Virus record (IMG/VR): IMGVR_UViG_3300033149_006574
Span: 1 to 64,000 of that record
DNA: 64,000 nucleotides
Direction: 5' to 3' (one strand)
Source of the DNA: a virus
Part shown: one piece after another, positions 1-50,080 of the stretch
How the letters are laid out: every line of letters starts with the position of its first letter
How positions within the stretch are numbered: position 1 is the stretch's first letter
Made by a program: the position numbers and the translations under genes
The notes under the pieces: model-generated
What the model was told of the DNA's origin: nothing
The model's input: only the letters and a program-made list of their open reading frames with translations
Database searches by the model: none

Positions 1-3000
1 AGTAACCTCAGGTCTTGCCCCCGCTGGTGTAACTATTTCCTGTCCATGCAAAATTGCAGGAACTTCTTGAGATGGCAAGCCAGGAACTATACCACCACCT
101 TGAAATCGAGGAAGGCTTCTAAAATATGCCGAACTCGGCATAATCCATCCCTCAAACCCATTTCTTATTGCCACAAGATTTCTATTTGCAATTTTTAGTT
201 CCTTATTGGTATCATCATATTTACCAATTATCCACTCCAATCTTTCTTCAATCTCATCAGTACCATCTTCAACTTTATCTCCTATGTCTTCAGTTGTTTC
301 AATCTGCTTTCCTATCAGACCACCCAATAAGCTCCCTACAGCGGTCCAAGCTGCTGATACAGCTGGCCCTATTCCTGGAATAAGTCCTGTTAACGCTCCT
401 GCTAGTGAACCCAACTCTGCACCAGTTTTTGCTTCATTTTTAACAATTGTTTGAGTTCCATCCTGATTGTATTTTATAGTTTCTGCTGTAGATGCCCAAA
501 GAGCATTAATTATATAACTTGCTGCCAAAAGCGAGGTTTCTGCCAATTTACCCGTTTGAGATTTTAATTCATTTTTTATTGCTTCACTATTTTTAACAGA
601 AACATTAACTATTTTTTTATCTCCTTCACTTACCCTGCCCTGTATAGCCAATGGTAATATTCCCCCAGCAATTGTCGCAGTTGTAGGTACATTTGTACCT
701 CTGCCCCCAGTAGCCCAAGTTTCTTGTACGCCCTGAATTAAAGGTGCTAATTTGGTTCTACTTAGTAATTCGTCAATACCACTAAATAACCTGTCCAGTA
801 TCTTTTCTTGCCAGGCGTCACCAATCTTACTAAATACATTTGATATGGTTTCACCAAGTTGTCTCCATTGCTGTTCATGCTTTGACAATCCGCCTTCTGC
901 TACTTCATACCAATCAACTTCAAGGTCAAGTATATCCATCAGCCCCTGTTTAACAGGTCCCTGTATTTCTTCTTTAGCTTTCTCAATTGCTTTTGCATAT
1001 TCCTCTTGATATTCATATAATAATTTTTGTACCTGTAACTTATATTCTAATTCTGTAATTATTCTTCTTTCCCCTCTACTTTCAAGTTCACGACTTGCAA
1101 TTAATTTTTCCCTAAGCTCTGCTAATTTTGTATTTATATCAAATATTTCTTTATTTTTATTAACAATTTCTAGCAAGGCATATTTATGTTCAATTTCAGA
1201 TTTTATCCGGTTAGATGAAAGTGCCGAAAGCTCTTTTTCAACTTTCAACTGCGACTGTATCCATTTAACGATATCTCCTATTACTGCCTTATCCTGTAGG
1301 TCTATTCCCAATTTTTTCAATCGCTCTGATGTAATTTCTTTACCCGATTCCAATAAATTTCTTATTGCATTCAATTCTTTTTTCGTTACATCAGGATATT
1401 TAATAAGAATATCATGAATATTTTTTTCATAATATTCTCTTTCTCTTAAGGCTTTATCCAATGCTGTCTCTTCAATTGCTGTTCGCCTAATAAAATATAA
1501 TTCTTTTTCCCTTTCTCTTACAGCTTTTCTAATTTCTTCAACTGCATATTCCCCCATCTTAGCTATTATTTTCGCCAATTGAAGCTTCTTCAACAACTTA
1601 TCAAGGGCATCGCCCATTAAATTTAATTCTTTCTTACTGATCCCATAATTTTCATATGCAATATTCTCTATTTCTCTGATAATATCCCATCTCTTTTTAT
1701 CTTTATGAAGTAATTCATCAGTTATCTTTCCCTCTCTTACCATATCAGCAATTATTTCTCTTACTGCAACAGTAACTCGGGCTTGATGTGCAAACAATTC
1801 TGGATATTGTTTAATCATTTCTCTAAGCCCTTTTGGCATGGCAGCGAAGATTTTCTCTTGGTCTACACTTAAATCTTTCCCTGTTCTTAGCATCTTTGCT
1901 ATATTACTTAAAATTCCCAATTCCTCTTTTGATATCTGTCCAGTAATGCCCGCTACAATCAAATTGGACCTCATAATCTGAGCACGTTCCTTAATATTCT
2001 TAAGGTCTTCCTCATTTAATTTCATTCCAGTTCTGATAGCTTTTGTAGTATCTACACTTATTATTCCTAGCGAATTTGCAACTCCATTGACTTTTTCAAG
2101 GATGACATTCCATTCTTTAGTTTCAGACAAAGATTTGGCCATCTCTTGCCCTATTTGTTGAATGGCAAAAATAGTATCTGAGAACCATTGTTTCATTAAT
2201 ATTGAAAATTGTCTACTAAAAGTTTTTTCTTGAGCAGTTCTCATTTTTGATGCAGTAAATTCAACACTACCAGTCAATTCTTCAACTGCTTTTTTCCAGG
2301 CCTCATAATGGCCCAGTATCATTGTAATTCCTCTTCCTGCTCTTCTTCCGAAAACCTCGTAAATCCTACCCAATGTCTCAGCAGAATCTATATTGTCCTT
2401 AGTTCTTTCATGTAATTGTTCCATAATATCTATAAAATTAATTGGCCTAGTTGGGTCAAAGGCAATATAAAATTCCCTTCTTAATTTATCACTATCTTTT
2501 GCAAGGCGAACGAAGCTATTGAGGAGAGTTGTACCTGCTCTACTACCACGAATAAGATGTGTATTTAGAAAGCCTATAGTTCCAACCAATTCCTCAAATG
2601 ACATATCCAAAAGACCAGCTGCACCGCCTACATACTTGAAAGCATCTGCAATTTCATTAAGTTCTACTTGATGCTGTGAATAAGCATATGACAAAACATC
2701 AACTATATGGCGAAATCTTTCTGCTTGGAAGAATGTTCCTTCCATTCGGTCGCTAAATAATTTATATGCCCCAGCTACAAGACGAGCGGTAGTTTTTAAA
2801 TCAGACTGTGTAGCAATTGCCAGGTCCAATTCATGTCTAAATCCTGCCATAACATCAGAAGTTTTAAGTCCTATAGTCGCTAGATGATACATTGCATCCG
2901 CCACTTCTTTAAAGCTCATACTAGAAGTTTTACCATAACTATAAACCGCTCTTTCAAGGTCACCAAATTTTCTTTCAAATCCCATTGTTATATTTAAAAC

Positions 3001-3903
3001 TGCATTAACCCTGGCCATTGCTGTTTCTGTTTCTGATGCTTGTTTAAATAATGAAGTAAAAGCCCGTGTTACTGATCTTATTCCTGCATAGGCCATTGTC
3101 CATCCAAAGGCCCAAATAAACATTTTCCTTGCAAATTGTGCTATCATACTGCCAGATTGCTTCAGTTTATGAGCAAACATTTCCATCTTCTCTTTTTGTG
3201 CTTCACTAAGTTCGACGCCCTTTTGTTGAGCTGAAAAGAGCAAATTATATCCTTGACGATAATAATTCATTTTATCGCCAGTTTTTCTATATCTTATTTC
3301 AAGTGCCAATAATTTCTTATTAAGCGTTTCTGCAGTGGGAATTTGGCCTTTAAATTGTTTGGTGAGAAATTGTTGCTGTTTTACTAGTTCTTTTATTCTT
3401 TCAATTTCATCTCTGGATAGGGGTTCCCTCTTATGCATTAAAAGATTTAACTCTTCATTCGTTTCAGCTAATCTTCTTGCAGTTATATCTGTATTAATAT
3501 ACCCTTCAATTAATTCCCTTTTTCTCTGAGCAGTAATTTTTGTAGCCAATTGTTCTTGCTGAAGCCCCTTAACCGCTTTTGCTCTTTCTCTTGTAACTCT
3601 TTTTATCTCCCTCGCAGCTTTTTCACGTTCAGCTATGGTTTTTTCCAGTGCTTTTTTGATCCGCCCGGCTTCTTTTACAGTGGCTCTCTCTTCAGTGGTA
3701 TCTTCTTTAAATGCTTTAATTGCTTCTCTATATTCTTTTGCCTTACGAGTAAGAGTATCTCTTTGACGCTTAAACTTATTTTCTTCTTTTGCTAGGCCAC
3801 TAATCTTTCTTTCTAATTCTTTAATCTGAGCACTGGTTTCACGAAAACCTGTAGGCTCAGCATTTATAATAAGATTAATTAAATCTGTAGATATACTAGC
3901 CAT
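1..3903 (-). CDS. Tail tape measure protein (TP901-like core), 3' end beyond the window edge
   Basis: Not in the ORF track. ATG at 3903 (MASISTDLINLIINAEPTGF); segments I translated by hand are in frame through to base 1. TMP core ...KEVADAMYHLATIG...DLAIATQSDL...EIADAFKYVGGAAGLLDISFEELVGTIG...GSRAGTTL and C-terminal GGIVPGLPSQEVPAILHGQEIV. Confidence 0.92.
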   Translation of the reverse strand, partial: MASISTDLINLIINAEPTGFRETSAQIKELERKISGLAKEENKFKRQRDTLTRKAKEYREAIKAFKEDTTEERATVKEAGRIKKALEKTIAEREKAAREIKRVTRERAKAVKGLQQEQLATKITAQRKRELIEGYINTDITARRLAETNEELNLLMHKREPLSRDEIERIKELVKQQQFLTKQFKGQIPTAETLNKKLLALEIRYRKTGDKMNYYRQGYNLLFSAQQKGVELSEAQKEKMEMFAHKLKQSGSMIAQFARKMFIWAFGWTMAYAGIRSVTRAFTSLFKQASETETAMARVNAVLNITMGFERKFGDLERAVYSYGKTSSMSFKEVADAMYHLATIGLKTSDVMAGFRHELDLAIATQSDLKTTARLVAGAYKLFSDRMEGTFFQAERFRHIVDVLSYAYSQHQVELNEIADAFKYVGGAAGLLDMSFEELVGTIGFLNTHLIRGSRAGTTLLNSFVRLAKDSDKLRREFYIAFDPTRPINFIDIMEQLHERTKDNIDSAETLGRIYEVFGRRAGRGITMILGHYEAWKKAVEELTGSVEFTASKMRTAQEKTFSRQFSILMKQWFSDTIFAIQQIGQEMAKSLSETKEWNVILEKVNGVANSLGIISVDTTKAIRTGMKLNEEDLKNIKERAQIMRSNLIVAGITGQISKEELGILSNIAKMLRTGKDLSVDQEKIFAAMPKGLREMIKQYPELFAHQARVTVAVREIIADMVREGKITDELLHKDKKRWDIIREIENIAYENYGISKKELNLMGDALDKLLKKLQLAKIIAKMGEYAVEEIRKAVREREKELYFIRRTAIEETALDKALREREYYEKNIHDILIKYPDVTKKELNAIRNLLESGKEITSERLKKLGIDLQDKAVIGDIVKWIQSQLKVEKELSALSSNRIKSEIEHKYALLEIVNKNKEIFDINTKLAELREKLIASRELESRGERRIITELEYKLQVQKLLYEYQEEYAKAIEKAKEEIQGPVKQGLMDILDLEVDWYEVAEGGLSKHEQQWRQLGETISNVFSKIGDAWQEKILDRLFSGIDELLSRTKLAPLIQGVQETWATGGRGTNVPTTATIAGGILPLAIQGRVSEGDKKIVNVSVKNSEAIKNELKSQTGKLAETSLLAASYIINALWASTAETIKYNQDGTQTIVKNEAKTGAELGSLAGALTGLIPGIGPAVSAAWTAVGSLLGGLIGKQIETTEDIGDKVEDGTDEIEERLEWIIGKYDDTNKELKIANRNLVAIRNGFEGWIMPSSAYFRSLPRFQGGGIVPGLPSQEVPAILHGQEIVTPAGARPEVT

Positions 3904-6994: not shown

Positions 6995-7441
6995 TTAATC
7001 CTCCTTTCTTTTTATACAAACAACTCGAACTTTTGTCCCCAAGCTATTTTCTGTAATATTTTTAATTGTAAATTTTGTATTATCTGGAGACTCAAGAAAT
7101 AAATCATTTTTCTGCACATTTTCCAAATAAGTTGTCTCATCTTTATCAAAATCTATTATTGCATCACCTGATATAAAACTTCCTATTTCAAATTGCTTCC
7201 TAACATCTTCTGTTAGCCAATAAAGAAGCCCCTTTGCTTTTCTAGTTTCAAAGGTCTTAATCCAATATTCGCCCCCACAAGTAGGACAAGAAGGATTTTT
7301 GCTTCTATTATATAATTTATCCAAAGTGCAATCAGGACAAGGGGTAATTGATTTTAAATATTTTATAGTAAAATCAAACCCATAATTATTCCTGATATCA
7401 TTCTCTATTCTTCTGATATATGTTTTATGTTTATCAAGCAT
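6995..7441 (-). CDS. Head closure/stopper protein with CxxC-CxxC insert
   Basis: Follows the adaptor gene; CPDC...CPTC motif. Confidence 0.55.
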   Translation of the reverse strand: MLDKHKTYIRRIENDIRNNYGFDFTIKYLKSITPCPDCTLDKLYNRSKNPSCPTCGGEYWIKTFETRKAKGLLYWLTEDVRKQFEIGSFISGDAIIDFDKDETTYLENVQKNDLFLESPDNTKFTIKNITENSLGTKVRVVCIKRKED

Positions 7442-7449
7442 CTTGAAAC

Positions 7450-8061
7450 CTAAACTATTACAGCTAAGGGTTCCTTAATCCCAATACTTGCTAACAAACG
7501 CTGAAGCTCATTATCAATATCTCTAATCTGGTTACTATATGGCATATCGTCATATCTTAAAGTATACTGATCTAATTTTTCTGATGTAAGCCCCTGACTA
7601 TCATAATTCCCTTTTGCAAAAAGAACTAATCTTGAAGCTATAAGAAAACAAGCCCTTTTAGCAAGTTTCAGAATATTTTCATCAGTAAAGCCCCATTTAT
7701 AAATAATCTTAATGTTTCTTTTGCCCTCTGGGAATAACGCATTATTCTTCAAAACTATTTTTCCAATTTCATTATAGAGATAATAGGAATCACTGTCCTT
7801 TGAGGTAGTATTAATTGTCAAAGAGCTGATTGAGATCACAGGATAATGACGAAGGAAAAGAACGCTCTTTTCATCACCATCATAAATTTCTGTAACCTCA
7901 GTTTCTTCAAATCTTTTATTTGTGGAACTCAGCAAAATGTCCTCAGCATCTGACATATATTGCTGAATTTCATTATCTGTTATAATAACAGGCGTGGCTA
8001 GGTCGCTTTCTACCTTAGTAAATTTTCTAATTTTATCAATGTAACTATTATCCAGTAACAT
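7450..8061 (-). CDS. Head-tail adaptor (gp6/gp15-like)
   Basis: Directly after capsid; YDGD..LFLRHYPV, NIKIIYKWG, SEKLDQYTLRY motifs. Confidence 0.7.
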   Translation of the reverse strand: MLLDNSYIDKIRKFTKVESDLATPVIITDNEIQQYMSDAEDILLSSTNKRFEETEVTEIYDGDEKSVLFLRHYPVISISSLTINTTSKDSDSYYLYNEIGKIVLKNNALFPEGKRNIKIIYKWGFTDENILKLAKRACFLIASRLVLFAKGNYDSQGLTSEKLDQYTLRYDDMPYSNQIRDIDNELQRLLASIGIKEPLAVIV

Positions 8062-8081
8062 TTAATTCCTTCCTTATTTTA

Positions 8082-8130
8082 CCTGGGGTCTGGAGGGAAG
8101 GCGAGACAAAATTAAAATCCAGACCCCAGG
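8082..8130. repeat. 13-bp perfect inverted repeat after the capsid gene
   Basis: CCTGGGGTCTGGA / TCCAGACCCCAGG; no U-tract on the coding strand, so probably an mRNA-stabilising hairpin. Confidence 0.7.
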
Positions 8131-8140
8131 GGAACAATTA

Positions 8141-9043
8141 TTATGTCCCTATATTTTTAATAACACAATGAAGCTTTGATGCACCTTTAACAGCCAGTGC
8201 CTCATATCCATTTATCCTGAATGCCCTAGCATCTGCAGTAACTTTAACTTCCTCATACCCAATTTCTTTTGCTACTGCCATAACCAGTTTCGAACGGTCC
8301 AGCACAAGTGCGTAACTTGCTGAACCTGAAGGCGTAGCACCATTAGCAACATCTGTCGGTACATAAGCTGATACATAAACAGGAATACCCTTATAGGATA
8401 CCAACTTAACCCCAGGCGTTACTTCTACTTTCTCCCATTCATATTTATATTGACCCCTGAAATACTTATCCAAATTCAATTTATCTCTGGCAGAAATCAC
8501 AATTAGAGTAGGTATTCCACCATTATTCACAATCTTAGAAATTGCTTCATCCAGTGCATCCAATCCATCACTGGAGCCAAGAGAGTTACCATAAAGGTTA
8601 ACTTCCTGTGTTATCTGCTTCCTTAATCCATCAAATTCTTTTGAATTACTTGAAGAATCTCCCTGAATAATAAGTTTCTCTTCTAATTGAGCAAGTGCTT
8701 CTGTTGCTCCTTCAATCTCCGAAGCCCACGGATCCAATATATCTCCGCCTACTTTAAGCATAAGGCCAGAAACCTGCCCTTCTGCTTCTATCATCTTTAT
8801 GGATACAGACTTACGTCCATATGTCGACTGAGTTGCCCCAAAGCTATCAGTCTCATCATATGCTTTTGCTGTTGCCAATGCACTTCTTTCATTCCATTCA
8901 TAAGCATTTGTGGACCATTTTACCCTCTTAATAAGAGTTCTCAATGGACAAATCTTATTCGCCAGTTCTATAAGCTCTGGATCAATTTTTTCTGGAATCA
9001 AAGCTGTTGCATCCGTTGTTAACGCTTTTTCAAGATCAAGCAC
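8141..9043 (-). CDS. Major capsid protein (HK97 fold)
   Basis: Follows protease/scaffold; ALIPEKIDPEL, EEKLIIQGD..EFDGL, YKGIPV motifs; SD AGGAGGTGA. Confidence 0.85.
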   Translation of the reverse strand: MLDLEKALTTDATALIPEKIDPELIELANKICPLRTLIKRVKWSTNAYEWNERSALATAKAYDETDSFGATQSTYGRKSVSIKMIEAEGQVSGLMLKVGGDILDPWASEIEGATEALAQLEEKLIIQGDSSSNSKEFDGLRKQITQEVNLYGNSLGSSDGLDALDEAISKIVNNGGIPTLIVISARDKLNLDKYFRGQYKYEWEKVEVTPGVKLVSYKGIPVYVSAYVPTDVANGATPSGSASYALVLDRSKLVMAVAKEIGYEEVKVTADARAFRINGYEALAVKGASKLHCVIKNIGT

Positions 9044-9088
9044 CTTATATCACCTCCTTTTTTTCGTTTTTAATTTAAATTAAATTTT

Positions 9089-10204
9089 TTATTTGCTTTC
9101 TATTTGCTTTTTTAATTTTAAGCGAAGCCTTTGTTCCAATGGAAGGCTGTTCCACTCCTTTTGAAATTCTTCTTTATCAATTTCTTCACTATTTACTAAT
9201 TTCTTTTTTTCATTTCCAGGAATTTTTGATAATACCTGAGTTATTGTTTCTTCAATATCTTTTTTTGTTACTATATTCTTCTGAATCTCCTCCAATGCTT
9301 TTTCGACATTACTTTGTTCCTCATCATCAGAAACTTCTTTTTTCTCACCATAACCATAATCCCCATCTTTTCCTTCTTCCAGTTCAGCTATAAGACCCTG
9401 TAAAATATTAATAATCTTCTTTAATTCAGCGGAAACTTTTTTGACATCGGGATATTTGTCTTTATCCTTAGCTTTTTCGGTATTCTCATCTTTTTGTATC
9501 TCATCTTGCTTAGTCTCGTCCTTCGTCTCTTCTTTTACTTCTTGGTTTGTTTTAACTTCTTCCGTTTTCTCTTCATTCTTCGTCTCATCTGTTTCAGTTT
9601 TCACTTCATTCTCTTCGGGCTTTGTCTCATCCACTTCTTTTTTAACGATTTCACCCATGTTAGGTTCACCTCCTTCTTCGTCGTAATTTTCAAGTGCTTT
9701 ATTCATATACCAAGATACGACCTTACATTTAACATTCGCAGGCAAAGCAACTAAGCTTACCTCCCTAAATGTAAAGTCCAATATCTTTGTAACCCAGCGT
9801 TTAATTTTTTCAGAATATTCTTGTACAACCTTTTTTATGCTTCCCCCGAGACTAAATCCATCTAATATTCCTTCTTTTATCTGTTGCCAGATATCTTTAC
9901 GGGTTTGTGAAATTAAAGCCTTAATCCAGATTTTCGCAGGTTGTTCATCTAGAAATTTATGTTCAACAACTCTACCCACCAATATTTCTGGATTATGTCC
10001 ATATAAAAGCTTATCCCTAGTATCTAAACTACGTTCTGCATTCCGTAACGCTTCAGCTGTAAGATACATTGGAGGTTCCGAATCATCTTCTCCTTCGACA
10101 GCTGCGTAACCTTCTACAAACCATTTTTCTTCTTTCTCTTTCTCGCTTTTTTCTGTCCAGAATTTCTGAACTTTTACCGGAAATTCAAATGGGTATTCTT
10201 TCAT
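9089..10204 (-). CDS. Prohead protease fused to an acidic scaffold domain
   Basis: VEGYAA, LYGH, GFSLGG, EVSLVALPAN (HK97 protease); Glu/Lys-rich C-half with an internal AGGAGGTGA-ATG (MGEIVKKE) suggesting a nested scaffold start. Confidence 0.88.
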   Translation of the reverse strand: MKEYPFEFPVKVQKFWTEKSEKEKEEKWFVEGYAAVEGEDDSEPPMYLTAEALRNAERSLDTRDKLLYGHNPEILVGRVVEHKFLDEQPAKIWIKALISQTRKDIWQQIKEGILDGFSLGGSIKKVVQEYSEKIKRWVTKILDFTFREVSLVALPANVKCKVVSWYMNKALENYDEEGGEPNMGEIVKKEVDETKPEENEVKTETDETKNEEKTEEVKTNQEVKEETKDETKQDEIQKDENTEKAKDKDKYPDVKKVSAELKKIINILQGLIAELEEGKDGDYGYGEKKEVSDDEEQSNVEKALEEIQKNIVTKKDIEETITQVLSKIPGNEKKKLVNSEEIDKEEFQKEWNSLPLEQRLRLKLKKQIESK

Positions 10205-10270
10205 TTTTAAAAATCCTCCTAAAAAATAATTTATCCCTTCATTAATTAATTAGGATAATGGCGACGATTT

Positions 10271-12610
10271 TCATTTTGATTTTAATTTCTCCAGGGCCTC
10301 TGGATGCTTTTTATAATACGGTTCTTGATTTTTAGGCTTTGAGAAGACCCATATTCTCTTTCTTTTATCCTTTACTGGAACATATGTTAATATATATCTT
10401 CCATTTAAATATTTACCATGAAAGATGAATTCAAGAAAATGATGTCCATAAGGATAATATTCTACCTGGCTATGTTCTATATCATAAAGATAACCATAAG
10501 TATTAGCAGTTGCACCCACTTCTCCAGGATTTGCAATATATGGAAAATTATTGGGATTTAACCATCCGGGAGGAATTAATTTTTTTAACTCGCATAATGT
10601 TGGCAATCCCTCAAGAACTTTATATTTACTTTTTGGATCTGTATTCCCGGGAGTGTCTAAGGTAAATCCAATCGCAGCTTTCAATGGGGGCATCCAGACC
10701 CTTAGGTCAAGATGAGAAGAATTAGTCTTATCTATAAGTCCTTCAGATTTAATCTTTTGAAAGCTTTTAAAATTAGATGGCTTTCGCTTTTTAAGTACTT
10801 TTATTTCCTCTTCATTCAAACCCCTGATATGTTCCTGCAAAACGAATTTTGTTTTTTTACCTTTACCCAAGAACGTTCTATAGGGATTATCTTCTCCCAC
10901 CATAGCACCACCCTCTTCTCCGGTAAGTGCCTTTTGTAATAGCTCTTCGACAGAAATATCAAGGGTTGAAAAAGAATCAATGGAGTTCACCACTTCTGTA
11001 GAACCCCGTCCGCTTTTAGCAAGTTTTTCAACTTCTCTAATTGAATATGGTTCTTTTTTACCAGGTTCGGTTCCTCTAAATACGGGATTATCCCAGGTAA
11101 TTTTCTTTTTACCATCTTCTTCTTCCAATTTTATTTCTGCTACATAAACTTCAATAATATCACCCACTTTAATGGGTGTTTCTCTAACATTAATGTTATA
11201 TGTTCTGCCAATTTTAACATAATATTTCCCATTATATTCTTCTACATTTTGATACTTTTCTTTCTCCTCATTCTTTAGGGGGCCTATTAAGCCATCACAA
11301 TTTATAATATTTTTCTTTTTAGTTTGATTTATTTTCGAAACAAGAACATTTACAACCTTCCACATCTTGAGCTTTGTCCAAGCAGTAGTCGAGCCGGTCA
11401 AATTATAAACGCTATCTGCCAATTTGAACATTGCCCCTTCGCTATATTTTATATGTGAAACTTCATTAGAGGCCCTCTTAAGAGCCTGTACAGTATTGCA
11501 AATATAATATTTTGTCTGCTTTAGAGGGCCATTTCCTTTTATAATTTGTTTTAAATATTTTTTTCTTTCAAGAAGTGGCATTTGATTCAATGCCTTGCCA
11601 TCAAGGTAAAGAATATCAAAGAAATGAATAAAAACACCTGAATCACTACCAGGATCATTAGAAGTAGCCCACCTGACAAGGTCTTTTCGTGGAACTTGTT
11701 GGTCACCCTTTTTCTCCAGAAGCTCTCCGTCCAAGATAACTTGATTACAGGGAAGACTTTTAAGTGCTTTTACAATTGATGGCAAATATTTGGATCTATC
11801 CTTTTTAGCATCCTCAAAATAAATCAAAACTTTATCGCCATCTCGCTGGCATATTACTCTCAATCCATCGAATTTCTCTTCTACCACAACCCCTATTTTT
11901 AATTTTTCAGGTGTCAGCCACCATTTCATTAATTCATCTAATTCAAAAAATCTGGAGGCATATTCGGAAGGTTTTAATGGTTTGAATTTGGAAAATAATT
12001 TTAATTTTTTCTGAACCTCATCTATCATTTCTGTAACATAATGCCTTCTTAATTCGGGGTATTTAAATAAGCCAAGAGAAAATAATGGAATATAATCATC
12101 ATGTGGCCCTTGAGGATTCCAAATAAAATGCAAATTCTCTCTTATTTCTTTAGGAAACAAACGGGATATCCTAAGTTCCAGTGATTTATCCCTTCGCCAT
12201 TCCTCTGCCCTTATGCAAATATCAATGTCTTCAGGTGCATCCGATTTTACAGATGAACCAACAATACTTATAAAATCTGGAACATAAACAAGCGATCTCA
12301 AATTCTTAACCATTTCAAATAATTCCTTTTTCATCTTACCTTTTTCCTGTGCCTGGCTATGTTTATCCAGATTGTCCATAATACGATGTTTTAATCCTCT
12401 TTTTTTCATTTCCCTTACAACCAACACATGCCATCCTATAACATCCTCTTGAGTATATTTCTCTACATTTTTTCCCCACCATTGATGTAATCTACGATGT
12501 ATATTTAACAATTCTTCGTCAGATATATCAGACAATTTTTGAGGAGTAATTTCAGCAAAAGTCATTTTTATAAAATCTTCCAGCGGTACTTTATTTGTTG
12601 TTACTTTCAT
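10271..12610 (-). CDS. Multidomain protein: Pol-beta-type nucleotidyltransferase-like + ATP-dependent DNA ligase + LigD phosphoesterase-like domain
   Basis: IVGSS...EDIDI; ligase motifs EEKFDGLR, ILDGEL, FFDILY, EGAMFK, WTKLK plus OB-like region; C-terminal FVLQEH...HLDLR...FHGKYLNGRY. Confidence 0.85.
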   Translation of the reverse strand: MKVTTNKVPLEDFIKMTFAEITPQKLSDISDEELLNIHRRLHQWWGKNVEKYTQEDVIGWHVLVVREMKKRGLKHRIMDNLDKHSQAQEKGKMKKELFEMVKNLRSLVYVPDFISIVGSSVKSDAPEDIDICIRAEEWRRDKSLELRISRLFPKEIRENLHFIWNPQGPHDDYIPLFSLGLFKYPELRRHYVTEMIDEVQKKLKLFSKFKPLKPSEYASRFFELDELMKWWLTPEKLKIGVVVEEKFDGLRVICQRDGDKVLIYFEDAKKDRSKYLPSIVKALKSLPCNQVILDGELLEKKGDQQVPRKDLVRWATSNDPGSDSGVFIHFFDILYLDGKALNQMPLLERKKYLKQIIKGNGPLKQTKYYICNTVQALKRASNEVSHIKYSEGAMFKLADSVYNLTGSTTAWTKLKMWKVVNVLVSKINQTKKKNIINCDGLIGPLKNEEKEKYQNVEEYNGKYYVKIGRTYNINVRETPIKVGDIIEVYVAEIKLEEEDGKKKITWDNPVFRGTEPGKKEPYSIREVEKLAKSGRGSTEVVNSIDSFSTLDISVEELLQKALTGEEGGAMVGEDNPYRTFLGKGKKTKFVLQEHIRGLNEEEIKVLKKRKPSNFKSFQKIKSEGLIDKTNSSHLDLRVWMPPLKAAIGFTLDTPGNTDPKSKYKVLEGLPTLCELKKLIPPGWLNPNNFPYIANPGEVGATANTYGYLYDIEHSQVEYYPYGHHFLEFIFHGKYLNGRYILTYVPVKDKRKRIWVFSKPKNQEPYYKKHPEALEKLKSK

Positions 12611-13901
12611 GCGCTATTTCCTTGAGGCGTTTTGGTGAAAGAACGGCTTCTTCAGCCTTTGAATACGGAATCAAAAGAACATCTCCCCATTCCACTTCAC
12701 TCAAGCCTCTGTCAAGCCTGATCATATTTATGGTTTTAATAAGATTCTTAAGATCGTGTTCTTCAAGCTTAATTTGCTCTGATACATCAAGAGCACCAAG
12801 TGGATTGAATTTTATTTTTGCTTTTGCAGGTTTAAAATATACTTTCAAAAGTTTTCTGTCTATTCTGTTTTTAACGATTCTCTGATATCTTGAAATGACA
12901 AGGGTTCTAAAAAGCGAAATCTGTTGTGATGCATTTTCTTTCGTCCCACCCGAAAGGCCAAGAATAATTGGTTGCATTCTCCAGAGTGCAAAAATCTTTT
13001 CTCTTAAGCCTTCTGCATAAGTCGAAAATTCCATATCTTTATTGGAAAGAGAAACAGGAGTTACTTTAACATTCCCACTGGTAACAAGATTGGCATGTGG
13101 CTTCCCCTTTAATTGAGAATTAAGCAGATCGGTAATTCTTTCAAAATCCTCCTTACTAACATTGCCGACATCTATATGCAATCTTGGAGTAGCATTATTT
13201 TCAAAAAATGCGCCATTATATTGTTCAGCATAAATATCCGATGCTATTACTTTTTGCAATGTTTGAATTGGCGATTTACTATAAATTTCTTCCCCTACTG
13301 ATGGCATTCTGAAATAAATAATTTCATCAGGATCATATTCCTGAGTCACTCTTGCCACTTTTTGAACGAATTTAACAATAGAGCCATTTTTCACTTTAAT
13401 CTTTATTGTTTCAGGTGAAAGGGCATAAATCTTAAAAGGAAATTCAATATCCTGAACTTCTTTCTCAGGGTCTTCAACCTCCTTTACGAATTGAAGGTAT
13501 TTGTTTTTATTAAACGGAACGTACCAATAAGCTACATGATAGAGAGCAAGATTCAAAAATAATTCTTCCAGCAGGTCATCAAAAGTATCTTCTTCATTAG
13601 GCCTTTCCGTGAACTCTTGCAAAACCTCAAGCCAGCGATCATCAATTTTAGTTCCGATTTTGGAAGGAACAAAACGAAAGCCCGCAGCGGTTGCTCCGGA
13701 TGCAATTGCTTCAACCACTGCTCTGACCCAGACATCCTGGTTATAGCATTTCGTAACGGTGGTAAGATTAAATGGAAGTGCTTTCTCTTCAGAGTTTAAA
13801 AAGGAAAATCCTGCAATTGTAGGGACATAAGATTTTTTTATTTCAATTTGTTTTTTTAAATTTTTTGATCCTTTGGGCCGACCTCTTTTCTTTTTAATCA
13901 T
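12591..13901 (-). CDS. Portal protein (HK97 family)
   Basis: WVRAVVEAIA, RPN, EIIYFR, FFENNATP, KDMEF, TINMIR motifs; follows TerL. Confidence 0.92.
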   Translation of the reverse strand: MIKKKRGRPKGSKNLKKQIEIKKSYVPTIAGFSFLNSEEKALPFNLTTVTKCYNQDVWVRAVVEAIASGATAAGFRFVPSKIGTKIDDRWLEVLQEFTERPNEEDTFDDLLEELFLNLALYHVAYWYVPFNKNKYLQFVKEVEDPEKEVQDIEFPFKIYALSPETIKIKVKNGSIVKFVQKVARVTQEYDPDEIIYFRMPSVGEEIYSKSPIQTLQKVIASDIYAEQYNGAFFENNATPRLHIDVGNVSKEDFERITDLLNSQLKGKPHANLVTSGNVKVTPVSLSNKDMEFSTYAEGLREKIFALWRMQPIILGLSGGTKENASQQISLFRTLVISRYQRIVKNRIDRKLLKVYFKPAKAKIKFNPLGALDVSEQIKLEEHDLKNLIKTINMIRLDRGLSEVEWGDVLLIPYSKAEEAVLSPKRLKEIAHESNNK

Positions 13902-13905
13902 ATTT

Positions 13906-15339
13906 TCACACCTCTAACATTTCGAATTGAAAGATACCTCCCTGTTTCTCGAACTGGGGTAATATTTCAGCAACAATAGCACAGCGAAGCATATCCACAT
14001 GATGGTCCTCTTCGTTCGGATAAATTATGGTTCCGTCTTTTGCAGTTGCCCTGGTCGAATTGTGCAATTCATCCAGTAAAGAATAGTCTGAGGAGGGGAC
14101 TTTAATCATATTTTCAATCATTGCTTGCTCAAGTTTCAAAGAGGACCACACTTTGACCCTTTGTGTTATTTTTTTCCCATCTGATGTTTCGCCCAGCTTA
14201 ACATGCTTGCCGAAATTAACTGGAACGAAAGTAAATGGCCCCTCATAATTAATAAGGTCTAAGGCGACAGATTTTCCCGCACCACCCTCATCAATCGCTA
14301 CCCAGCATCCTGGAAAACGATTAATTAAAAATTTAAATAATTCCGTTTGTTGACTATAAATCACGCCATTAAGAATATATTTACCAAATAAATGCAATGC
14401 GCCTTTATCCGTTTTATTCCACAGTCCTATAACGGTGGGACTTGGTGAATAAGCAATATCAGCTGAGATTATTACAGGAGCGGTTTTTGAGATTGGTTCG
14501 GGAACCTCAAGATGTTCGAAATCAATTTTTTGGTCCGCCTGAAAATCCAGATTTACGATTTTGTAATCCTCATACTCAAAATTTGATATAAGATCCAGCG
14601 CTCTTGGTGCAAAGGCTAGATCTCTGAAAGTTTTTGACCATTCTGCAAGCACCTGTGTCCTGTACATAAAGCTCGAGCGACCACCATACATTCTTGCCAG
14701 AAAATCATCCTGCTGTTTGGTATAATCGGGTCGGTCAAATTTAGTAATAGTCTTCTCCTTAAAAAAAGTCTCCTCTTCCAGCGTCCTATAAAGATATGAT
14801 TTTCTCACATCATTTGGCACTCCAAGAACGCGAATTTTTGTATTCGTTTTAAGACAGCCCTGTAATTGTTCCAATGGCTTTGTGGTAAATATCTGTCCCT
14901 CATCTATCCATACGACGTCCGGGTGTAGACCGAAAAAAGTTTTGCCACCCGAAAATCCTGCAACTCTTGAATGTAAAACCGTTTTGTTTTTAAATTGTAT
15001 CAAATAATCGGGGGCTCTTAAAACCCTTTCAACCTGAGTCTTTAAAAAGCTATCGTTTTCAATCCTCAGGATTATTCTGTCCATTGTTGGAGAAAGATGA
15101 GCTTTGTTGGGAGTAGTAAAAAGAAGTTCCCTCTCTTTTTTCTCTGAGTTATCAAGGCATTCCCTTATAATATCAGCTTCCAGTGTTTTTGTTTTACCCA
15201 CGCCCCTTGCGGCGGAAACATGATAAAATTGAAATGCTTTATAACGAATTGATATCCTTTTTTGGTAGTCAAAAGGATCCATCTGATTCCAGAACCAGAA
15301 CCACGAAACAGGATTTTTCACAAGCCAGGCAAGTTTCAT
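13906..15339 (-). CDS. terL: Terminase large subunit
   Basis: Walker A ARGVGKT, Walker B WIDEGQ, RNase H-like acidic motifs ADIA, IDEGG, DHHVD. Confidence 0.88.
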   Translation of the reverse strand: MKLAWLVKNPVSWFWFWNQMDPFDYQKRISIRYKAFQFYHVSAARGVGKTKTLEADIIRECLDNSEKKERELLFTTPNKAHLSPTMDRIILRIENDSFLKTQVERVLRAPDYLIQFKNKTVLHSRVAGFSGGKTFFGLHPDVVWIDEGQIFTTKPLEQLQGCLKTNTKIRVLGVPNDVRKSYLYRTLEEETFFKEKTITKFDRPDYTKQQDDFLARMYGGRSSFMYRTQVLAEWSKTFRDLAFAPRALDLISNFEYEDYKIVNLDFQADQKIDFEHLEVPEPISKTAPVIISADIAYSPSPTVIGLWNKTDKGALHLFGKYILNGVIYSQQTELFKFLINRFPGCWVAIDEGGAGKSVALDLINYEGPFTFVPVNFGKHVKLGETSDGKKITQRVKVWSSLKLEQAMIENMIKVPSSDYSLLDELHNSTRATAKDGTIIYPNEEDHHVDMLRCAIVAEILPQFEKQGGIFQFEMLEV

Positions 15340-16055
15340 ATTTTAGGGATTGGGGTAGCGGTAAACCCCTGTAATTCGGGTAAATAATTTAACACTTCTA
15401 TCTCCTGCCCGCAATAAGGACATTTTAAAACATACATTTCTGGATGCAATCTGGACCATTTTTCATATTTTTGAAGCACATCGGCAATAGTATCTTCCAG
15501 CGTCATGGCCTGAGAGTCAGACTTTTGCTTTTCCTCAAGCCTCTGACTTCTCAAAAGAGATAAATCCTTTTGTAGCATCCTGAGCTCTTCCGTAATTTTT
15601 ATAAGTGATTGGTGCAAATAATATTTGTCTTTTGCCGAAGAAGTTGTGGTAAGTGAATAATCAATTCTTTTGGATTCAAGCTCAAGCATAAGCAATCTTG
15701 TCAAAAGCGCCAGATCCGCTGTTTCATAGATCGAGGTATCTTTTAAATATTCGTCTCTTCTTTTGACCCAGAACATTTTTTCCTGCTCATTTTTCAAAAA
15801 TACCACGGACTTATCTGGTGCAGTTTCAATAAAAATATCTTCTTGTTTTTTAGAATCCTTTTCCTTACTCTTTTGCTGAAAAGCTTTAAACTGTTTAAGT
15901 TTCGGGATCACGGACCTGCAGGTCGGACAGAGAGTGGGCAATTGTTTGCCGGGATAGTGAAGGACCCTGAACTTTCTCTTACACTGCTGGCATATCTGCA
16001 CCTTAATCTCGCCTGTGGCTTTTTTCTCAAATTTCTTAATCAAATCTTCAGTCAT
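15336..16055 (-). CDS. Probable terminase small subunit with Zn-ribbons
   Basis: Overlaps the TerL start (ATGA); helical core; CxxC motifs. Confidence 0.5.
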   Translation of the reverse strand: MTEDLIKKFEKKATGEIKVQICQQCKRKFRVLHYPGKQLPTLCPTCRSVIPKLKQFKAFQQKSKEKDSKKQEDIFIETAPDKSVVFLKNEQEKMFWVKRRDEYLKDTSIYETADLALLTRLLMLELESKRIDYSLTTTSSAKDKYYLHQSLIKITEELRMLQKDLSLLRSQRLEEKQKSDSQAMTLEDTIADVLQKYEKWSRLHPEMYVLKCPYCGQEIEVLNYLPELQGFTATPIPKI

Positions 16056-16067
16056 TTTCTCCCCTTT

Positions 16068-16259
16068 TTATGTAAGCTTGTTTGTGGACAGAACGCGGGT
16101 CTCGATATTTATAGCATCAAAATATTCTGAAGGTATAAGAACCCTTCTGCCAAAATGAATTGCGGGAATATTCCCTGCTTTAATATGCCTCTGTATCGTT
16201 CTAGAAGAACATTTTAAGATTCTCGCAGTCTCTCTGATTGTTAAAAATTTATCGTTCAT
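16068..16259 (-). CDS. Excisionase-like (HTH_17/MerR-type) DNA-binding protein
   Basis: FLTIRETARIL..S.RTI...I.AGNIPAIHFGRRVLIP. Confidence 0.85.
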   Translation of the reverse strand: MNDKFLTIRETARILKCSSRTIQRHIKAGNIPAIHFGRRVLIPSEYFDAINIETRVLSTNKLT

Positions 16260-16488
16260 TATCGAATCTGATAAGCGGAATCTTTTTTCTATCCTCCCAT
16301 TCCTGCGCCCCTATTCCAACAAATTCCCCATCGACAGAAAAAAATTCAAGGGATATGCCCATTTTCCTGGACATAATCATCTCAAGCACAGCTTTGCGCT
16401 TAAAAAATTCATCTTCTGCTTTTTGAAATCTCCTCCAGTATGGTTTTAACTTCCTGACCCAAACATCTTTTTTAAATTTTACTTGCAT
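16249..16488 (-). CDS. Hypothetical protein (first gene of late arm)
   Basis: ORF with GAGGGGG SD and an upstream TATAAT. Confidence 0.6.
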   Translation of the reverse strand: MQVKFKKDVWVRKLKPYWRRFQKAEDEFFKRKAVLEMIMSRKMGISLEFFSVDGEFVGIGAQEWEDRKKIPLIRFDNER

Positions 16489-17575
16489 CTTACCCCCTCA
16501 CTATTATATATGACATATGGCGACATAAAACGACAAAAAATGAAAAAATCGCACAAAAATTAAAAATTCAAAAAAATAAAAAAATTCTTTAAATTCTTTC
16601 TCATGATCATCCCAGTACCGGTACTAGATACTCAGGTATAATAATATAATATATATAAATATATGCTAATCAAATATTTAATACCGGTTTATGCTATATA
16701 TACCGGAGAGCAACTAAGTATCTATTTGAGCTAAGTTTATTCTAGATCTATTACAATTAAGCTATAAAGTTACATAAAGTCTATTCATGTTAATACCGGC
16801 TTTGCATAAATATAGCGACAAATATGATTTTATGTCACAGATGTTCCGGCACCTTTCTTAAAGAAAATGAATAAAAAAGAAAAAAATATTGTTAAAAAAA
16901 GAAAAAAATTTGCTTTCCTCTGCTTTCTAGCTGAAATTGCCAGTCCAGCCCTGCTATAGGAATGCCACCAGAACAATTCTTTGCCCTAAATTTTCGATTT
17001 TCTTGCCCCGAGCCTACCTGACCTATCTCCCAGGAGCATCTAAGCCCCAAAATCGCCAAATTTTTGCTCACAGAGATATGTCCTGCTCTAGAGAAAGAGA
17101 AAAAAAAGAAGAGGAACTAAATAGAAAAAATCCGGAAAGCACAATTTGAGGCCTCAGTGTTATAGCTAATTTCGCACCAGAGCAACGGAAAGGGGGATTT
17201 CAGGCGAGATTTTTAAAAACACGTGTAATTGTATCAGAATAGACAGTTCGTGGCTTAAATCGCAAAATTTGACTGTCAAGTCCCCCTCAGATTCCATTAC
17301 TAATGGGAAATCGAGAGCGAGTGGAATTTTTAAAAATGGTGGGGTCAAATGAGAGGCACTATCCCACAACCCCTTGCCACGCCTTGATTTTTTTACTTCC
17401 CCCCGCTTTTGAATTATCTTTATGGTTATTAGCATTCCAGTGGTTTGGTAAAGCGATACTTTACTTCACATAATAACACTTGTGTCAAGTAGTTGTTACC
17501 ACTTCACTTGTCATTAGCAAGATTGAAGTTTGAAGCGTAAGTAGTTGACTTTTCCACTCCATATATGGTATAACA
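16489..17575. promoter_or_regulatory. Divergent non-coding control region (candidate packaging/origin region)
   Basis: ~1.1 kb without a credible ORF; A-tracts, GACA 10-bp phased repeats, TACCGG repeats; the coding strand switches here. Confidence 0.6.
17545..17574 (+). promoter_or_regulatory. Sigma70-type early promoter
   Basis: TTGACT-18 nt-TATAAC with TG extended -10. Confidence 0.6.
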
Positions 17576-29826: not shown

Positions 29827-30297
29827 ATGAATCAGGGTTGCTCTTGTGAAAAATGTGTAGCTGCTTGCTGGCATACCCCAGGTTGGTTTGGCTCGATTGA
29901 AGAAATTGAAGGGGCTGCTAGACTGATGGGAATGCCGGTAAAAGATTTTGTTAAAGAATTTCTTATCCAGGAATATTGGGTAGGGGAAGAAGAAGATATT
30001 ATTGTTCCTTCTCCACGCAGAAATTTTGATAGATATAAAGGACCAAAAGAAACAGATTATTCAGAGATTTTTAAAGAAGAAAATGGCAAAGGCTTTGTTC
30101 TAGCTAGTTGGGGACATAATCTCATAAGAGGATATGCTTGCATTTTTTTAGATGAGAATAATAGGTGTTTAATCCATCAGAGTAAGCCCAGAGAATGCAG
30201 AGAATGTTTTGTATGTAAGGGCCAATTTATTGATAGAAGCGATTTATTACCATATTGGAAAGAACATCAGGATTGGATAGGGGAAATGGAGAGATGA
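29827..30297 (+). CDS. YkgJ-like Cys-cluster (Zn/Fe-chelating) protein
   Basis: C.CEKC...C and CIFLD...CLIH..KP.EC. Confidence 0.7.
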   Translation: MNQGCSCEKCVAACWHTPGWFGSIEEIEGAARLMGMPVKDFVKEFLIQEYWVGEEEDIIVPSPRRNFDRYKGPKETDYSEIFKEENGKGFVLASWGHNLIRGYACIFLDENNRCLIHQSKPRECRECFVCKGQFIDRSDLLPYWKEHQDWIGEMER

Positions 30298-31097
30298 CAA
30301 TAACGAAAGATAAGATAAAAGAATTTTTAACTATGGCCAAATTATCTGGTCATTCAAATAATACGATAGCAGGATATGAGGGAGATTTAAATCAATTTTT
30401 CAATTATTCACGGGACTTAACTAAATCAAAAATAAATTCATGGATCGTAGATTTATACAATAAAAAAAGAAAATCAGCAACAATTCAGAGGAAAGTATAT
30501 GCACTAAAATCATTTGCTAAATTTTTGGGAAAAGAAAAAGAAATACCATCAATCAAATTCCAAACCAAGAAGCTATTACCGAAATATTTAAAACAGAAAG
30601 AAATTGAGATAGTATTGAGTAAAATTAAAAGCTTAAGGGACAAAGCAATATTTAATATTCTTCTATGCACTGGATTAAGAATCAGTGAATTAATTTCTAT
30701 AAATAGGGACGATATTTCTGATAACAAAATTAAAATAAAAGGCAAGGGGAATAAAGAGAGGATAGTTATTTTATCCAAGCAAGCCCTTAATATTTTAAAA
30801 AAGTATTTGGAAACTAGAAATGATGAGAATCCTGCATTATTTTTAGGTAATAAAAAGCAGAGGATAACCAGAGGTGGTTGTTATTTCTTAATAAAACATT
30901 GGTTACAATATTGCAATATTAATGGGAGCCCACATTGGTTAAGGCATACTTTTGCAACAAAACTTATTAAATCTGGCATGAGTATTTATGCATTATCAAA
31001 ATTATTAGGGCATTCATCTCCAACAATAACTCAGCGTTATGCTCATTTAGAAACCGCAGATTTGGAACAGGAATATGCAAAATACTGGAGGGATTGA
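30294..31097 (+). CDS. Tyrosine recombinase (XerC/D-like)
   Basis: TGLRISE, KGKGNKER, HWLRHTFAT, LLGH, TQRY; start ATG 30294 is coupled to the upstream stop. Confidence 0.93.
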   Translation: MTITKDKIKEFLTMAKLSGHSNNTIAGYEGDLNQFFNYSRDLTKSKINSWIVDLYNKKRKSATIQRKVYALKSFAKFLGKEKEIPSIKFQTKKLLPKYLKQKEIEIVLSKIKSLRDKAIFNILLCTGLRISELISINRDDISDNKIKIKGKGNKERIVILSKQALNILKKYLETRNDENPALFLGNKKQRITRGGCYFLIKHWLQYCNINGSPHWLRHTFATKLIKSGMSIYALSKLLGHSSPTITQRYAHLETADLEQEYAKYWRD

Positions 31098-31361: not shown

Positions 31362-32150
31362 ATGGAAAATAAAATCAATTCAATTATTTGTGGTGATTCG
31401 TTAGAAGAACTTAAAAAGATAAAAAGTAGGTCTATTGATTTAATTATTACATCGCCCCCATACAATACGGGAATTTCGTATGATAAACATGATGACAGAC
31501 AGGATTATAAAGTATATCTAAATAATATGGCAAAAATATTTGAACAATGTTATCGGATATTGGTTAAAGGCGGTCGCATAGCACTAAATAGTCCCTCAAT
31601 GATTATGCAGCATACAGGTTCAAGAGTAGCATATCTTAGCATTGATTTTTTATTAGCATTGAGAAAAGTTGGGTTTCAAGACCGCGAAATGATAATTTGG
31701 ATTAAGTCAAAGCCATCTAAAATTGGAAATGAATGGGCTATTCTTCCATCAGGGCATAGTACAAGTTGGGGCAGTTGGAAATCAGCTTCTAACCCTAGTA
31801 TAAGGGATGCAAGTGAATTTATAATTGTTATGCATAAGGAAACGCCAAAATTACAAACAAAAGGAATATCAGATATTACAAGAGATCAATTTTTGGCATG
31901 GACGACCAACGCCTTTTATTTTCCACCAGAGACATCTATGCGCAGATTTCATCCAGCTCCATTTCCTTTGGAATTGCCAAGGCGTCTTATTCTATTATAT
32001 TCATGCAAAAATGCGATAATTTTAGATCCATTTTGTGGAATAGGCACCACATGTCTGGCTGCGAAAAGATTAGGTAGAAGATATATTGGGATTGATATTT
32101 CTCCAACATATTGCAGAATTGCTAGAGATAGATTGAACGAGTTGCTTTAA
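31362..32150 (+). CDS. DNA methyltransferase, beta class (probably N4-cytosine)
   Basis: TSPPY; HPAPFP; LDPFCGIGTT. Confidence 0.92.
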   Translation: MENKINSIICGDSLEELKKIKSRSIDLIITSPPYNTGISYDKHDDRQDYKVYLNNMAKIFEQCYRILVKGGRIALNSPSMIMQHTGSRVAYLSIDFLLALRKVGFQDREMIIWIKSKPSKIGNEWAILPSGHSTSWGSWKSASNPSIRDASEFIIVMHKETPKLQTKGISDITRDQFLAWTTNAFYFPPETSMRRFHPAPFPLELPRRLILLYSCKNAIILDPFCGIGTTCLAAKRLGRRYIGIDISPTYCRIARDRLNELL

Positions 32151-32230: not shown

Positions 32231-33280
32231 ATGGAAGATAAACAGGAATTAGGGAAGCGATTATTAGATATCGTATTAGATAGAGAGCCAGATTATAATC
32301 CACCAATACTTTTAGGAAAAGATAATTTAAGACCTCAGAGCTTTTCAGATTTCATAGGGCAGGAAAAGGTTAAGGCTCAACTTAAAATTGCGGTAGAAGC
32401 ATCTCAAAAATTATCTACTTCAATAGACCATATTCTTTTAACTTCTTTTTTACCTGGAACGGGAAAAACAACATTAGCTAATATAGTGGCAAAAGAAAGA
32501 AAGGTAAAATTTTATATGGCTAATGCGGGAAGCATAGAGAAATATGTAGATTTATTTTGTTTATTAGGACAAGCCAGAAAGGATAAAAATCCAATTATAT
32601 TCATAGATGAGATACATAATTTAAAAACAGCATTAGCGGAAAGTATTTACAATGTTATGGAAGATCCTAATATGGAATTAACATATGAAGAATCTAACTG
32701 GGGAACAATTAGTTTTAAAATGCCACCATTTACTTTAATAGGTGCAACTGCAGGAAATCAAGGAATGTTACCCTCTCCATTTTTAGATAGATTTGGAATT
32801 AAAATAACATTGGAAGCTTATACAATTGAGGATATTATAAAGTTAATTAAGAAGAATATTAAAAAATTTCATATCAATTTAAATCAAAATGTTATAGAGG
32901 CTTTAGCCCAGATGTCTTGTTACACTCCTCGTCTGGCTAATAATTTACTGAAGCAATTATATAATTATTGTATTGTTAAAAAGATTAAAAATATAACAAT
33001 GAAAGATTTTTCTGCATTTAAGAAATTATATGATTTAGATGATTTAGGGTTAGATATGCCATCCCGTATGATTATTAAGGCATTAGCTGAAAGTCCTAAG
33101 GGTGCATTGGGAATCGATTCCCTTGCCAGAAAAACCCGAATAAATAAAAATACTATGATTCAGATTTATGAACCTAAATTGCTTGCATTGAAATTGATTG
33201 ATTATATGCCACGTGGTCGTGTATTAACACAAATTGGAAAGAGGTATTTTATTGAGAAAATGGATAAAAAGGAGAAATAA
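32231..33280 (+). CDS. ruvB: Holliday junction branch-migration helicase RuvB-like
   Basis: LRP..F.DFIGQ, DHILL, PGTGKTTLA, FIDEIH, PPFTLIGAT, DRFG, TPRLAN, YEP.L..PRGR. Confidence 0.9.
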   Translation: MEDKQELGKRLLDIVLDREPDYNPPILLGKDNLRPQSFSDFIGQEKVKAQLKIAVEASQKLSTSIDHILLTSFLPGTGKTTLANIVAKERKVKFYMANAGSIEKYVDLFCLLGQARKDKNPIIFIDEIHNLKTALAESIYNVMEDPNMELTYEESNWGTISFKMPPFTLIGATAGNQGMLPSPFLDRFGIKITLEAYTIEDIIKLIKKNIKKFHINLNQNVIEALAQMSCYTPRLANNLLKQLYNYCIVKKIKNITMKDFSAFKKLYDLDDLGLDMPSRMIIKALAESPKGALGIDSLARKTRINKNTMIQIYEPKLLALKLIDYMPRGRVLTQIGKRYFIEKMDKKEK

Positions 33281-50067: not shown

Positions 50068-50080
50068 TTGGAGGTGGGAA

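Follow-up and report, generated by a model that had tools for sequence, protein, structure and literature searches.

A viral head-module protein joining an ATP-dependent DNA ligase, a LigD-type phosphoesterase fold and a probable nucleotidyltransferase

The gene analyzed here is located in a stretch of viral DNA of 64,000 nucleotides (positions 1 to 64,000 of IMG/VR record IMGVR_UViG_3300033149_006574), hereafter the window, the source record of which is a 76.6-kb virus contig with direct terminal repeats. The gene occupies exactly positions 10271-12610 on the minus strand and encodes a protein of 779 amino acids (aa), here called P0001, for which an AlphaFold model predicts a helical domain, a nucleotidyltransferase-like (NTase-like) domain, an ATP-dependent DNA ligase and a LigD-type phosphoesterase (PE) in succession. 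A preliminary description of the window had reported a 779-aa open reading frame overlapping the portal stop and preceding the prohead protease gene. This stands once the strand is corrected to minus, while the same interval read on the plus strand is riddled with stops and closed. Along the minus strand, the gene order begins with a 239-aa zinc-ribbon protein (15336-16055), followed by a 477-aa protein (13906-15339) that fills the large-terminase slot between the zinc-ribbon protein and the portal, and for which no Pfam or PHROG match was obtained at the thresholds used. The portal gene (12591-13901; PF04860, 1.2e-37; phrog_12, 1.4e-44) and P0001 come next, succeeded by a 371-aa prohead protease, XkdF-like over aa 24-123, with a scaffold-like tail (9089-10204; phrog_9427, 3e-15, and a weak XkdF match), the major capsid protein (8141-9043; PF17236, 2.9e-13; phrog_212, 6e-22) and, beyond it, a head-tail adaptor (7450-8061), all on the minus strand. 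The ATG of P0001 at 12610 is located 20 nt inside the portal gene, and a Shine-Dalgarno-like AAGGA lies approximately 9 nt 5' of it. The gap between P0001 and the prohead protease gene measures 66 nt, and the protease gene is equipped with a strong AGGAGG. A scan of 7000-17500 for promoters and terminators returned sites no more numerous than in shuffled sequence, and no PHROG family matched P0001.

The AlphaFold model of P0001 was built on 46 relatives and reached a mean pLDDT (predicted local distance difference test) of 83.5. It divides the chain into a helical segment (23-102), an alpha/beta segment (107-181), a poorly modelled hinge (186-201), an adenylation segment (202-416), an OB segment (418-535), a disordered linker (537-576) and a beta-barrel (585-765). 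The N-terminal helical domain (aa 15-102; 12305..12568, minus strand), formed by the helices at 23-102 of the model, is retained family-wide, its profile “Nhel” being present in most relatives, and is a candidate for the DNA-binding or capsid-docking part of the protein. The preliminary description had read the protein as a three-domain enzyme of NTase, ligase and LigD-like PE. The ligase and the LigD-type PE hold, and both identities are regarded as highly probable, while the NTase part, drawn from a motif and weak profile matches, is probable as a fold.

The middle of the protein comprises a ligase adenylation (nucleotidyltransferase) domain (aa 202-416; 11363..12007, minus strand) with Lys246 as the predicted active-site residue, and an OB-fold domain (aa 417-536; 11003..11362, minus strand) that is all-beta over 418-514 in the model. 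PF01068 matches P0001 at 3e-25, with 89.4 bits against a Pfam gathering cut-off of 26.2. All five motifs of ATP-dependent ligases, as claimed from the letters alone, were recovered: I (K246-F-D-G), III (LDGE296), IIIa (FFD332ILY), IV (E391-G-AMFK396) and V (W-T-K-L-K413). They align to the archaeal ligase 3gde, and 146-161 of 161 relatives retain them. Within motif I, K246 is kept in 160 relatives and G249 in all 161. The range for K246, G249, E391 and K413 together is 157-161 of 161, and the conserved ligase residues further include E296, D332, E391-G392, K396 and K413. Structural alignments to ligases span aa 192-534, and hence cover both the adenylation and the OB domain. The assignment of this region as a predicted ATP-dependent DNA ligase with a C-terminal OB domain is thereby confirmed at the level of motifs and modelled fold. 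By sequence, it is closer to archaeal and eukaryotic ligases than to the LIG domain of LigD.

A disordered linker (aa 537-582; 10865..11002, minus strand; pLDDT <50 at 537-576) leads from the ligase to the C-terminal domain. Conservation is seen in the final ~20 residues of this linker (GEEGG...NPY), the position of which matches that of the N-peptide of LigD PE. No obvious repeated motif stands out in the two linkers of P0001. The LigD-type 3'-phosphoesterase domain itself (aa 583-765; 10316..10864, minus strand) contains a family-specific helical insert of ~33 residues (aa ~598-630) between the first two catalytic strands. Whether the C-terminal domain lacks a PE fold was tested with Foldseek, and the top seven matches were all LigD PE; the domain is confirmed in the model as a predicted eight-stranded beta-barrel of the PE fold. 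The family was further aligned with the PE domains of three true LigD proteins from the homologue list. There, the motif FVLQEH594...SH633-L-D635-L-R637 falls on the catalytic HxxxxxHxDxR of genuine LigD PE, which bears out the FVLQEH...HLDLR segment first noticed at the C-terminus. Residues H594, H633 and D635 align on manganese ligands and R637 on the phosphate-binding arginine, which in PaePE correspond to H42, H48 and D50 and to R52, respectively (PMC3082917). H633, D635 and R637 are invariant in 133 of 133 family PE segments, as is H594 in all 116 segments covering that column. The Pfam profile LigD_N (PF13298; gathering cut-off 31.1 bits) gave no match in P0001 even at E<=1. At the homologous place, 15 of the 46 relatives have sub-threshold matches at E<=1, five of which reach E<=1e-3 (lowest E 2e-7). 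A profile search of PDB sequences returned only marginal PE matches (E 0.02-0.13), and the PE call is based on the fold. Phosphoesterase chemistry would be expected.

The Pol-beta nucleotidyltransferase-like domain (aa 103-185; 12056..12304, minus strand) carries G118-S119 and D128-x-D130. The signature hG[GS]...DhDh reads V-G118-S119...D128-I-D130-I and is placed on a strand-turn-strand element (strands 107-117 and 129-133). It occurs in 151 of 151 family N-domains, with G118, D128 and D130 invariant and position 119 either Ser or Gly, so that the GS...DxD motif of Pol-beta type described earlier proves to be a property of the family. Profile matches are weak and all fall within one clan (PF01909, PF18765, PF22600). 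PF22600, the palm of poly(A) polymerase, matches aa 73-139 of P0001 at E 0.054. NTP_transf_2 (PF01909) reaches 1.6e-6 in two relatives and 0.0016 at residues 93-149 of the relative at locus L004, the homologous place. Leads from Atlas, by language model and by structure, point to viral NTP_transf_2 clusters. A VIA search with the whole model, in which ligases fill the list, had no NTase within its top 50, nor did the profile search of PDB sequences return one. Short homologues in which the N-domain stands alone were looked for and not found.

An exhaustive profile-free search retrieved 345 cluster representatives (50% identity) at E<1e-30, most of them 700-2600 residues long. With the best homologue at 1.6e-152, the pattern of P0001 is far beyond chance. 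The family is almost confined to uncultured viruses and spans bacterial and archaeal viruses; a single-protein scan of genome contigs returned no relative. A domain census was based on 162 retrieved proteins and a Pfam scan on 46 relatives. The NTase, ligase and PE domains occur together in 132 of the 162, mostly in the order of P0001, with PE before ligase in a few. An XkdF-type prohead protease is fused to the core in 80 of the 162 by profile, always C-terminal of it; by Pfam, the count is 18 of 46 relatives (best E 8e-33). The separate protease of the window, over its aa 24-123, matches the profile of these fused domains at E 1e-8, so that the window shows as two genes what half of the retrieved relatives have as one fused gene. 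At least 12 changes of fusion state are counted on a tree of the ligase core, with the proviso that truncated proteins may account for some “unfused” rows, and P0001 is located in a well-supported clade of eight members. Extra domains in the relatives comprise Dam-type and other SAM methyltransferases, metallo-beta-lactamase-fold (MBL-fold) domains, a UDG-like domain and an AAA ATPase, and one relative has an Acb1 anti-CBASS domain (2.6e-22). Three close relatives of P0001 (P0018, P0021 and P0019) have added metallo-beta-lactamase-fold domains and an AAA ATPase. A faint similarity to Apyc1 (anti-Pycsar) was also observed in two relatives.

Gene neighbourhoods were taken from IMG/VR loci, labelled L001 onwards, together with the uncultured archaeal virus ANMV-1 (L014, KP703175), in which the relative is annotated simply as a ligase. 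Of 13 viral loci, nine have the protease fused and four encode it separately close by. A portal gene is located upstream of the ligase gene in eight loci (L001, L003, L004, L006, L007, L011, L012 and ANMV-1), and these portals belong to three families (phrog_12, 113 and 146). Portal and ligase gene are immediate neighbours in all of these but L004, where a MuF gene and one further open reading frame separate them, and L007, where the portal lies ~1.9 kb upstream. A major capsid gene follows downstream in L001, L003, L004, L005, L007 and L008, from phrog_1623 and phrog_1005 as against phrog_212 in the window; L002 has the same layout of open reading frames as L001 and was left unscanned. In L011 (8004-11746) and L012 (8004-11763), the core is split into a helical and NTase gene followed by a ligase-OB-PE gene, and the split cores have the portal on one side and, downstream, a separate prohead protease on the other. 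Overall, a gene for a major capsid protein or a prohead protease is counted downstream in nine loci. Together with the protease fusions, this synteny answers the question whether homologs show no linkage to head genes, and the proposed linkage is upheld. A reading in which the protein replaces MuF was considered and rejected because of the separate MuF gene in L004. Two further observations were made on these loci. In L008, a DNA methyltransferase gene (10829-12079) is located between the ligase-PE gene and a separate XkdF protease gene. In ANMV-1 (KP703175), the gene at 1913-3193, deposited as a “MutT-like phage hydrolase”, scores as a portal (phrog_146, 2e-30) and lies directly upstream of the ligase relative.

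Elsewhere in the record, on the plus strand, a tyrosine integrase (30255-31097), two N6/N4 DNA methyltransferases (31362-32150 and 41798-42568), a RuvB-like ATPase (32231-33280) and a DnaB helicase (43119-44441) were identified, and the phage is temperate with a heavy capacity for DNA methylation. Ku (PF02735) is absent from the whole 76.6-kb record at E<=10, a Ku of the host still being possible, which extends to the full record the earlier statement that the window has none. A TnpB/IS605 OrfB-type protein is encoded inside the phage genome at 38852-39964 on the plus strand (OrfB_IS605, 4e-27; Cas12f1-like TNB, 4.5e-27; HTH_OrfB). The non-structural region also encodes, at 49994-50731 on the plus strand, a 245-aa member of the RNA_ligase family (PF09414, 7e-17), which gives the phage a second, separate nucleotidyl-transferase ligase. 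Among sequencing runs, no RNA run was listed for the sequence, and two DNA runs contained only small shares of its words.

It is proposed that P0001 is a single-chain enzyme for healing and sealing DNA ends that is packaged in the head and acts on the incoming genome, a reading to which we assign roughly even confidence. One chain would combine a ligase, a manganese-type LigD 3'-phosphoesterase and a minimal NTase-like domain of Pol-beta type. The protein would be synthesized late, in translational coupling to the portal. In protease-fused relatives, the whole protein would enter the procapsid with the protease domain, while the unfused P0001, made in step with the portal, would enter through protein-protein contact. 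It would then stay in the filled head and leave with the DNA. In the new cell, the PE would convert blocked 3' ends (3'-phosphate, 3'-ribonucleotides) to 3'-OH, a nucleotide would perhaps be added, and nicks or breaks would be sealed or the genome closed. The targets would include “dirty” breaks made by host nucleases, and the action would precede the expression of any phage gene. For the family, predicted loading into the capsid is well supported, owing to the protease fusions and the place in the head module. The co-fused methyltransferase, UDG-like, MBL-fold and Acb1 domains would lend the family an early-acting, counter-defence flavour. For P0001 itself, we infer that it would be packaged and injected, and its ejection, its substrate and any NTase activity are to be understood in the same conditional sense.

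Several observations weigh against this proposal. Phosphoesterases of this type possess a second phosphate-binding histidine (PaePE H84, MbaPE H78) and a tyrosine (Y88, Y82), and MbaPE with this histidine changed to alanine is inactive (PMC3082917). The His84-equivalent column is Ile679 in P0001 and Gln in 86 of 133 relatives, with the reservation that the sequence-based alignment in this strand may be off by a residue or two. The column of the tyrosine is an invariant Trp683 in the family, and a family-specific Lys676 (122 of 133) is found three residues upstream of Ile679. On the modelled fold, the PE of P0001 is best described as a true but divergent branch of the PE superfamily, and since the equivalent of His84 is missing, its substrate range and activities may differ from those of LigD. 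In the NTase-like domain, column 178, the likely third carboxylate as judged from its spacing of ~48 residues after DxD, is Ser in P0001 and Asp in 115 of 151 relatives (76%), and the NTase of P0001 may therefore be weak or inactive. Both substitutions weaken the picture of a complete LigD-like enzyme. Moreover, P0001 is fused neither to a protease nor to MuF or portal, and it belongs to a clade in which every member is unfused, which leaves gene order as the single line of evidence for its packaging. Fusion to the protease proves at most entry into the procapsid, not retention or ejection. There is no Ku in the record to hold ends together. P0001 is also the sole PF01068 ligase of the 76.6-kb record, so that it could serve in replication or recombination. 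Finally, among the 50,697 deposited phage genomes of INPHARED, a full-length relative was found only in ANMV-1. This absence from cultured phages accounts for the fact that no paper on the family was found. Literature searches for a packaged DNA ligase, for LigD or PE in phage heads, or for a fusion between a ligase and a prohead protease yielded nothing relevant.

The observations on the head module also bear on a role in the producer cell, whereby the enzyme, located at the portal or procapsid, would mend the replicated DNA (nicks, gaps, damaged ends) shortly before or during packaging, or would trim and seal ends within the filled head, and would not be injected. The position in the late operon, the translational coupling to the portal and the family-wide linkage to portal and protease would fit such a role. 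Terminase-driven packaging is harmed by nicks and gaps, and ligase mutants of T4 and T7 are generally known to have defects at the packaging stage. However, an enzyme fused to the protease is enclosed by the shell and kept apart from DNA not yet packaged, and the co-fused Acb1, methyltransferase and MBL-fold domains fit the next host cell better. A role confined to the producer cell is considered unlikely.

Injection is retained, with a narrower task, if the enzyme serves to close the genome: a co-injected, possibly pre-adenylated ligase would join the phage's own ends or natural virion nicks of the T5 kind, yielding a closed circle resistant to exonucleases, and the PE and NTase would tidy the ends. 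The integrase marks the phage as temperate, so that it must circularise; the record has direct terminal repeats and lacks Ku; and, judging by the title of PDB entry 9hu3, there is a phage ligase that serves phage nick sites specifically. Nevertheless, the ends made by terminase are clean (5'-P/3'-OH), which leaves a conserved 3'-phosphoesterase unexplained. Repeats at contig ends usually signify a circular assembly rather than physical ends, and host LigA is generally known to be normally enough for cos closure. Genome closing as the specific function is regarded as rather improbable.

P0001 might alternatively be an ordinary ligase of replication or recombination, incidentally placed in the late operon and flanked by accessory modules for DNA binding or repair. 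Its standing as the only ATP-dependent DNA ligase domain of the record would suit this, as would the phage's own DnaB and RuvB-like genes. The position after the portal is, however, kept across differing portal and capsid families, and a prohead protease is joined to the core in half of the relatives retrieved, neither of which is expected of a replication gene; this explanation is held to be quite improbable. Repair of RNA, for instance against anticodon nucleases in the manner of T4 Pnkp and Rnl1, with the PE taking off 2',3'-cyclic or 3'-phosphates, the NTase restoring nucleotides and the ligase sealing RNA, would draw on the logic of end healing plus sealing, on the action of PE on 3'-ribonucleotide ends (PMC3082917) and on weak RNA_ligase and capping-enzyme cross-matches in a few relatives. 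We consider it very improbable; the PF09414 RNA ligase of the phage is a separate protein.

The proposed packaged end-healing enzyme can be compared with several known systems. It resembles LigD in that one chain unites an ATP-dependent ligase (adenylation plus OB), a PE-fold domain and a domain of the nucleotide-adding type. Bacterial LigD consists of POL, PE and LIG and works with Ku in non-homologous end joining. The set of His-His-Asp manganese ligands plus a phosphate-binding Arg is likewise shared with the PE domains of LigD and with the stand-alone PE proteins of archaea (PDB 3n9b, 3p4h, 3p43, 5dmp; PMC3082917). The polymerase slot of P0001, by contrast, is filled by a minimal NTase-like domain of Pol-beta type and not by an archaeo-eukaryotic primase-polymerase (AEP). 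Neither PF21686 nor another AEP domain was found in P0001 or the 46 relatives scanned, whereas the genuine LigD proteins P0013-15 do carry the AEP POL domain. The order in P0001 is NTase-LIG-PE, the record has no Ku, and the gene is located in a viral head module. The PE of the family differs from that of LigD in the ~33-aa helical insert, in Ile or Gln for the second His and in Trp for Tyr. With no AEP domain, no Ku, another domain order and a divergent PE, the enzyme is LigD-like in its working (heal, add, seal) and lies outside the LigD system.

A second comparison concerns the polyvalent proteins and head-packaged effectors of phages, enzymes fused to MuF, portal or capsid peptidase (Iyer et al. 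2017, PMC5512222; Iyer et al. 2022, PMC9503650), a concept that takes in fusions to a capsid-processing serine peptidase (PMC9503650). P0001 is similarly a large multidomain enzyme next to the portal, with relatives fused to a capsid-processing serine peptidase. Variable extra domains (methyltransferases, Acb1, MBL, UDG-like) and the logic of delivery with the DNA are also shared. The difference is that the invariant core here serves repair, not attack. In a text search of PMC5512222, neither an ATP-dependent DNA ligase nor a LigD PE came up among polyvalent-protein domains, and Pol-beta NTases are reported only in the polyvalent proteins that belong to conjugative elements (PMC5512222). By its domains and neighbours, P0001 would fit a head-module effector with a LigD-like repair core.

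Several phage enzymes are carried in the virion and injected, including P1 DarB, T4 Alt and internal proteins, and the N4 virion RNA polymerase, some of which are cited in PMC5512222 and PMC9503650. P0001 is likewise late-made, would load into the head and would act first in the next cell, and its size of ~90 kDa is within the known range of injected virion enzymes. None of those proteins, however, is a DNA ligase or an end-healing enzyme, and for P0001 packaging is only a prediction. The mycobacteriophages Omega and Corndog encode a Ku that recruits host LigD to circularise the genome. End-joining chemistry on the phage's own incoming genome is common to both cases, but Omega and Corndog bring Ku and borrow the host ligase, whereas the present phage brings a ligase and PE and no Ku.

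The known counter-defences of phages act by concealing or modifying the DNA or by inhibiting the host nuclease. A packaged repair enzyme, if true, would undo the cut itself, and damage repair, rather than inhibition of nucleases, would emerge as a general anti-defence strategy. Among head-packaged effectors, the protein would further be the first to be based on a ligase. As a natural single-chain, Ku-free enzyme for end healing and sealing, it would be a possible reagent for joining dirty ends. Thanks to the fusion with a prohead protease, packaging is a claim open to direct testing. Extended to the family, it is suggested tentatively, at somewhat less than even confidence, that hundreds of uncultured tailed-virus lineages, infecting bacteria and archaea, may carry in the capsid an injected, Ku-independent, LigD-like repair machine, possibly precharged with AMP and in about half of the retrieved members an extension of the prohead protease, that would, ahead of all viral gene expression, heal or reseal breaks made by restriction, CRISPR or nicking systems or close the genome.

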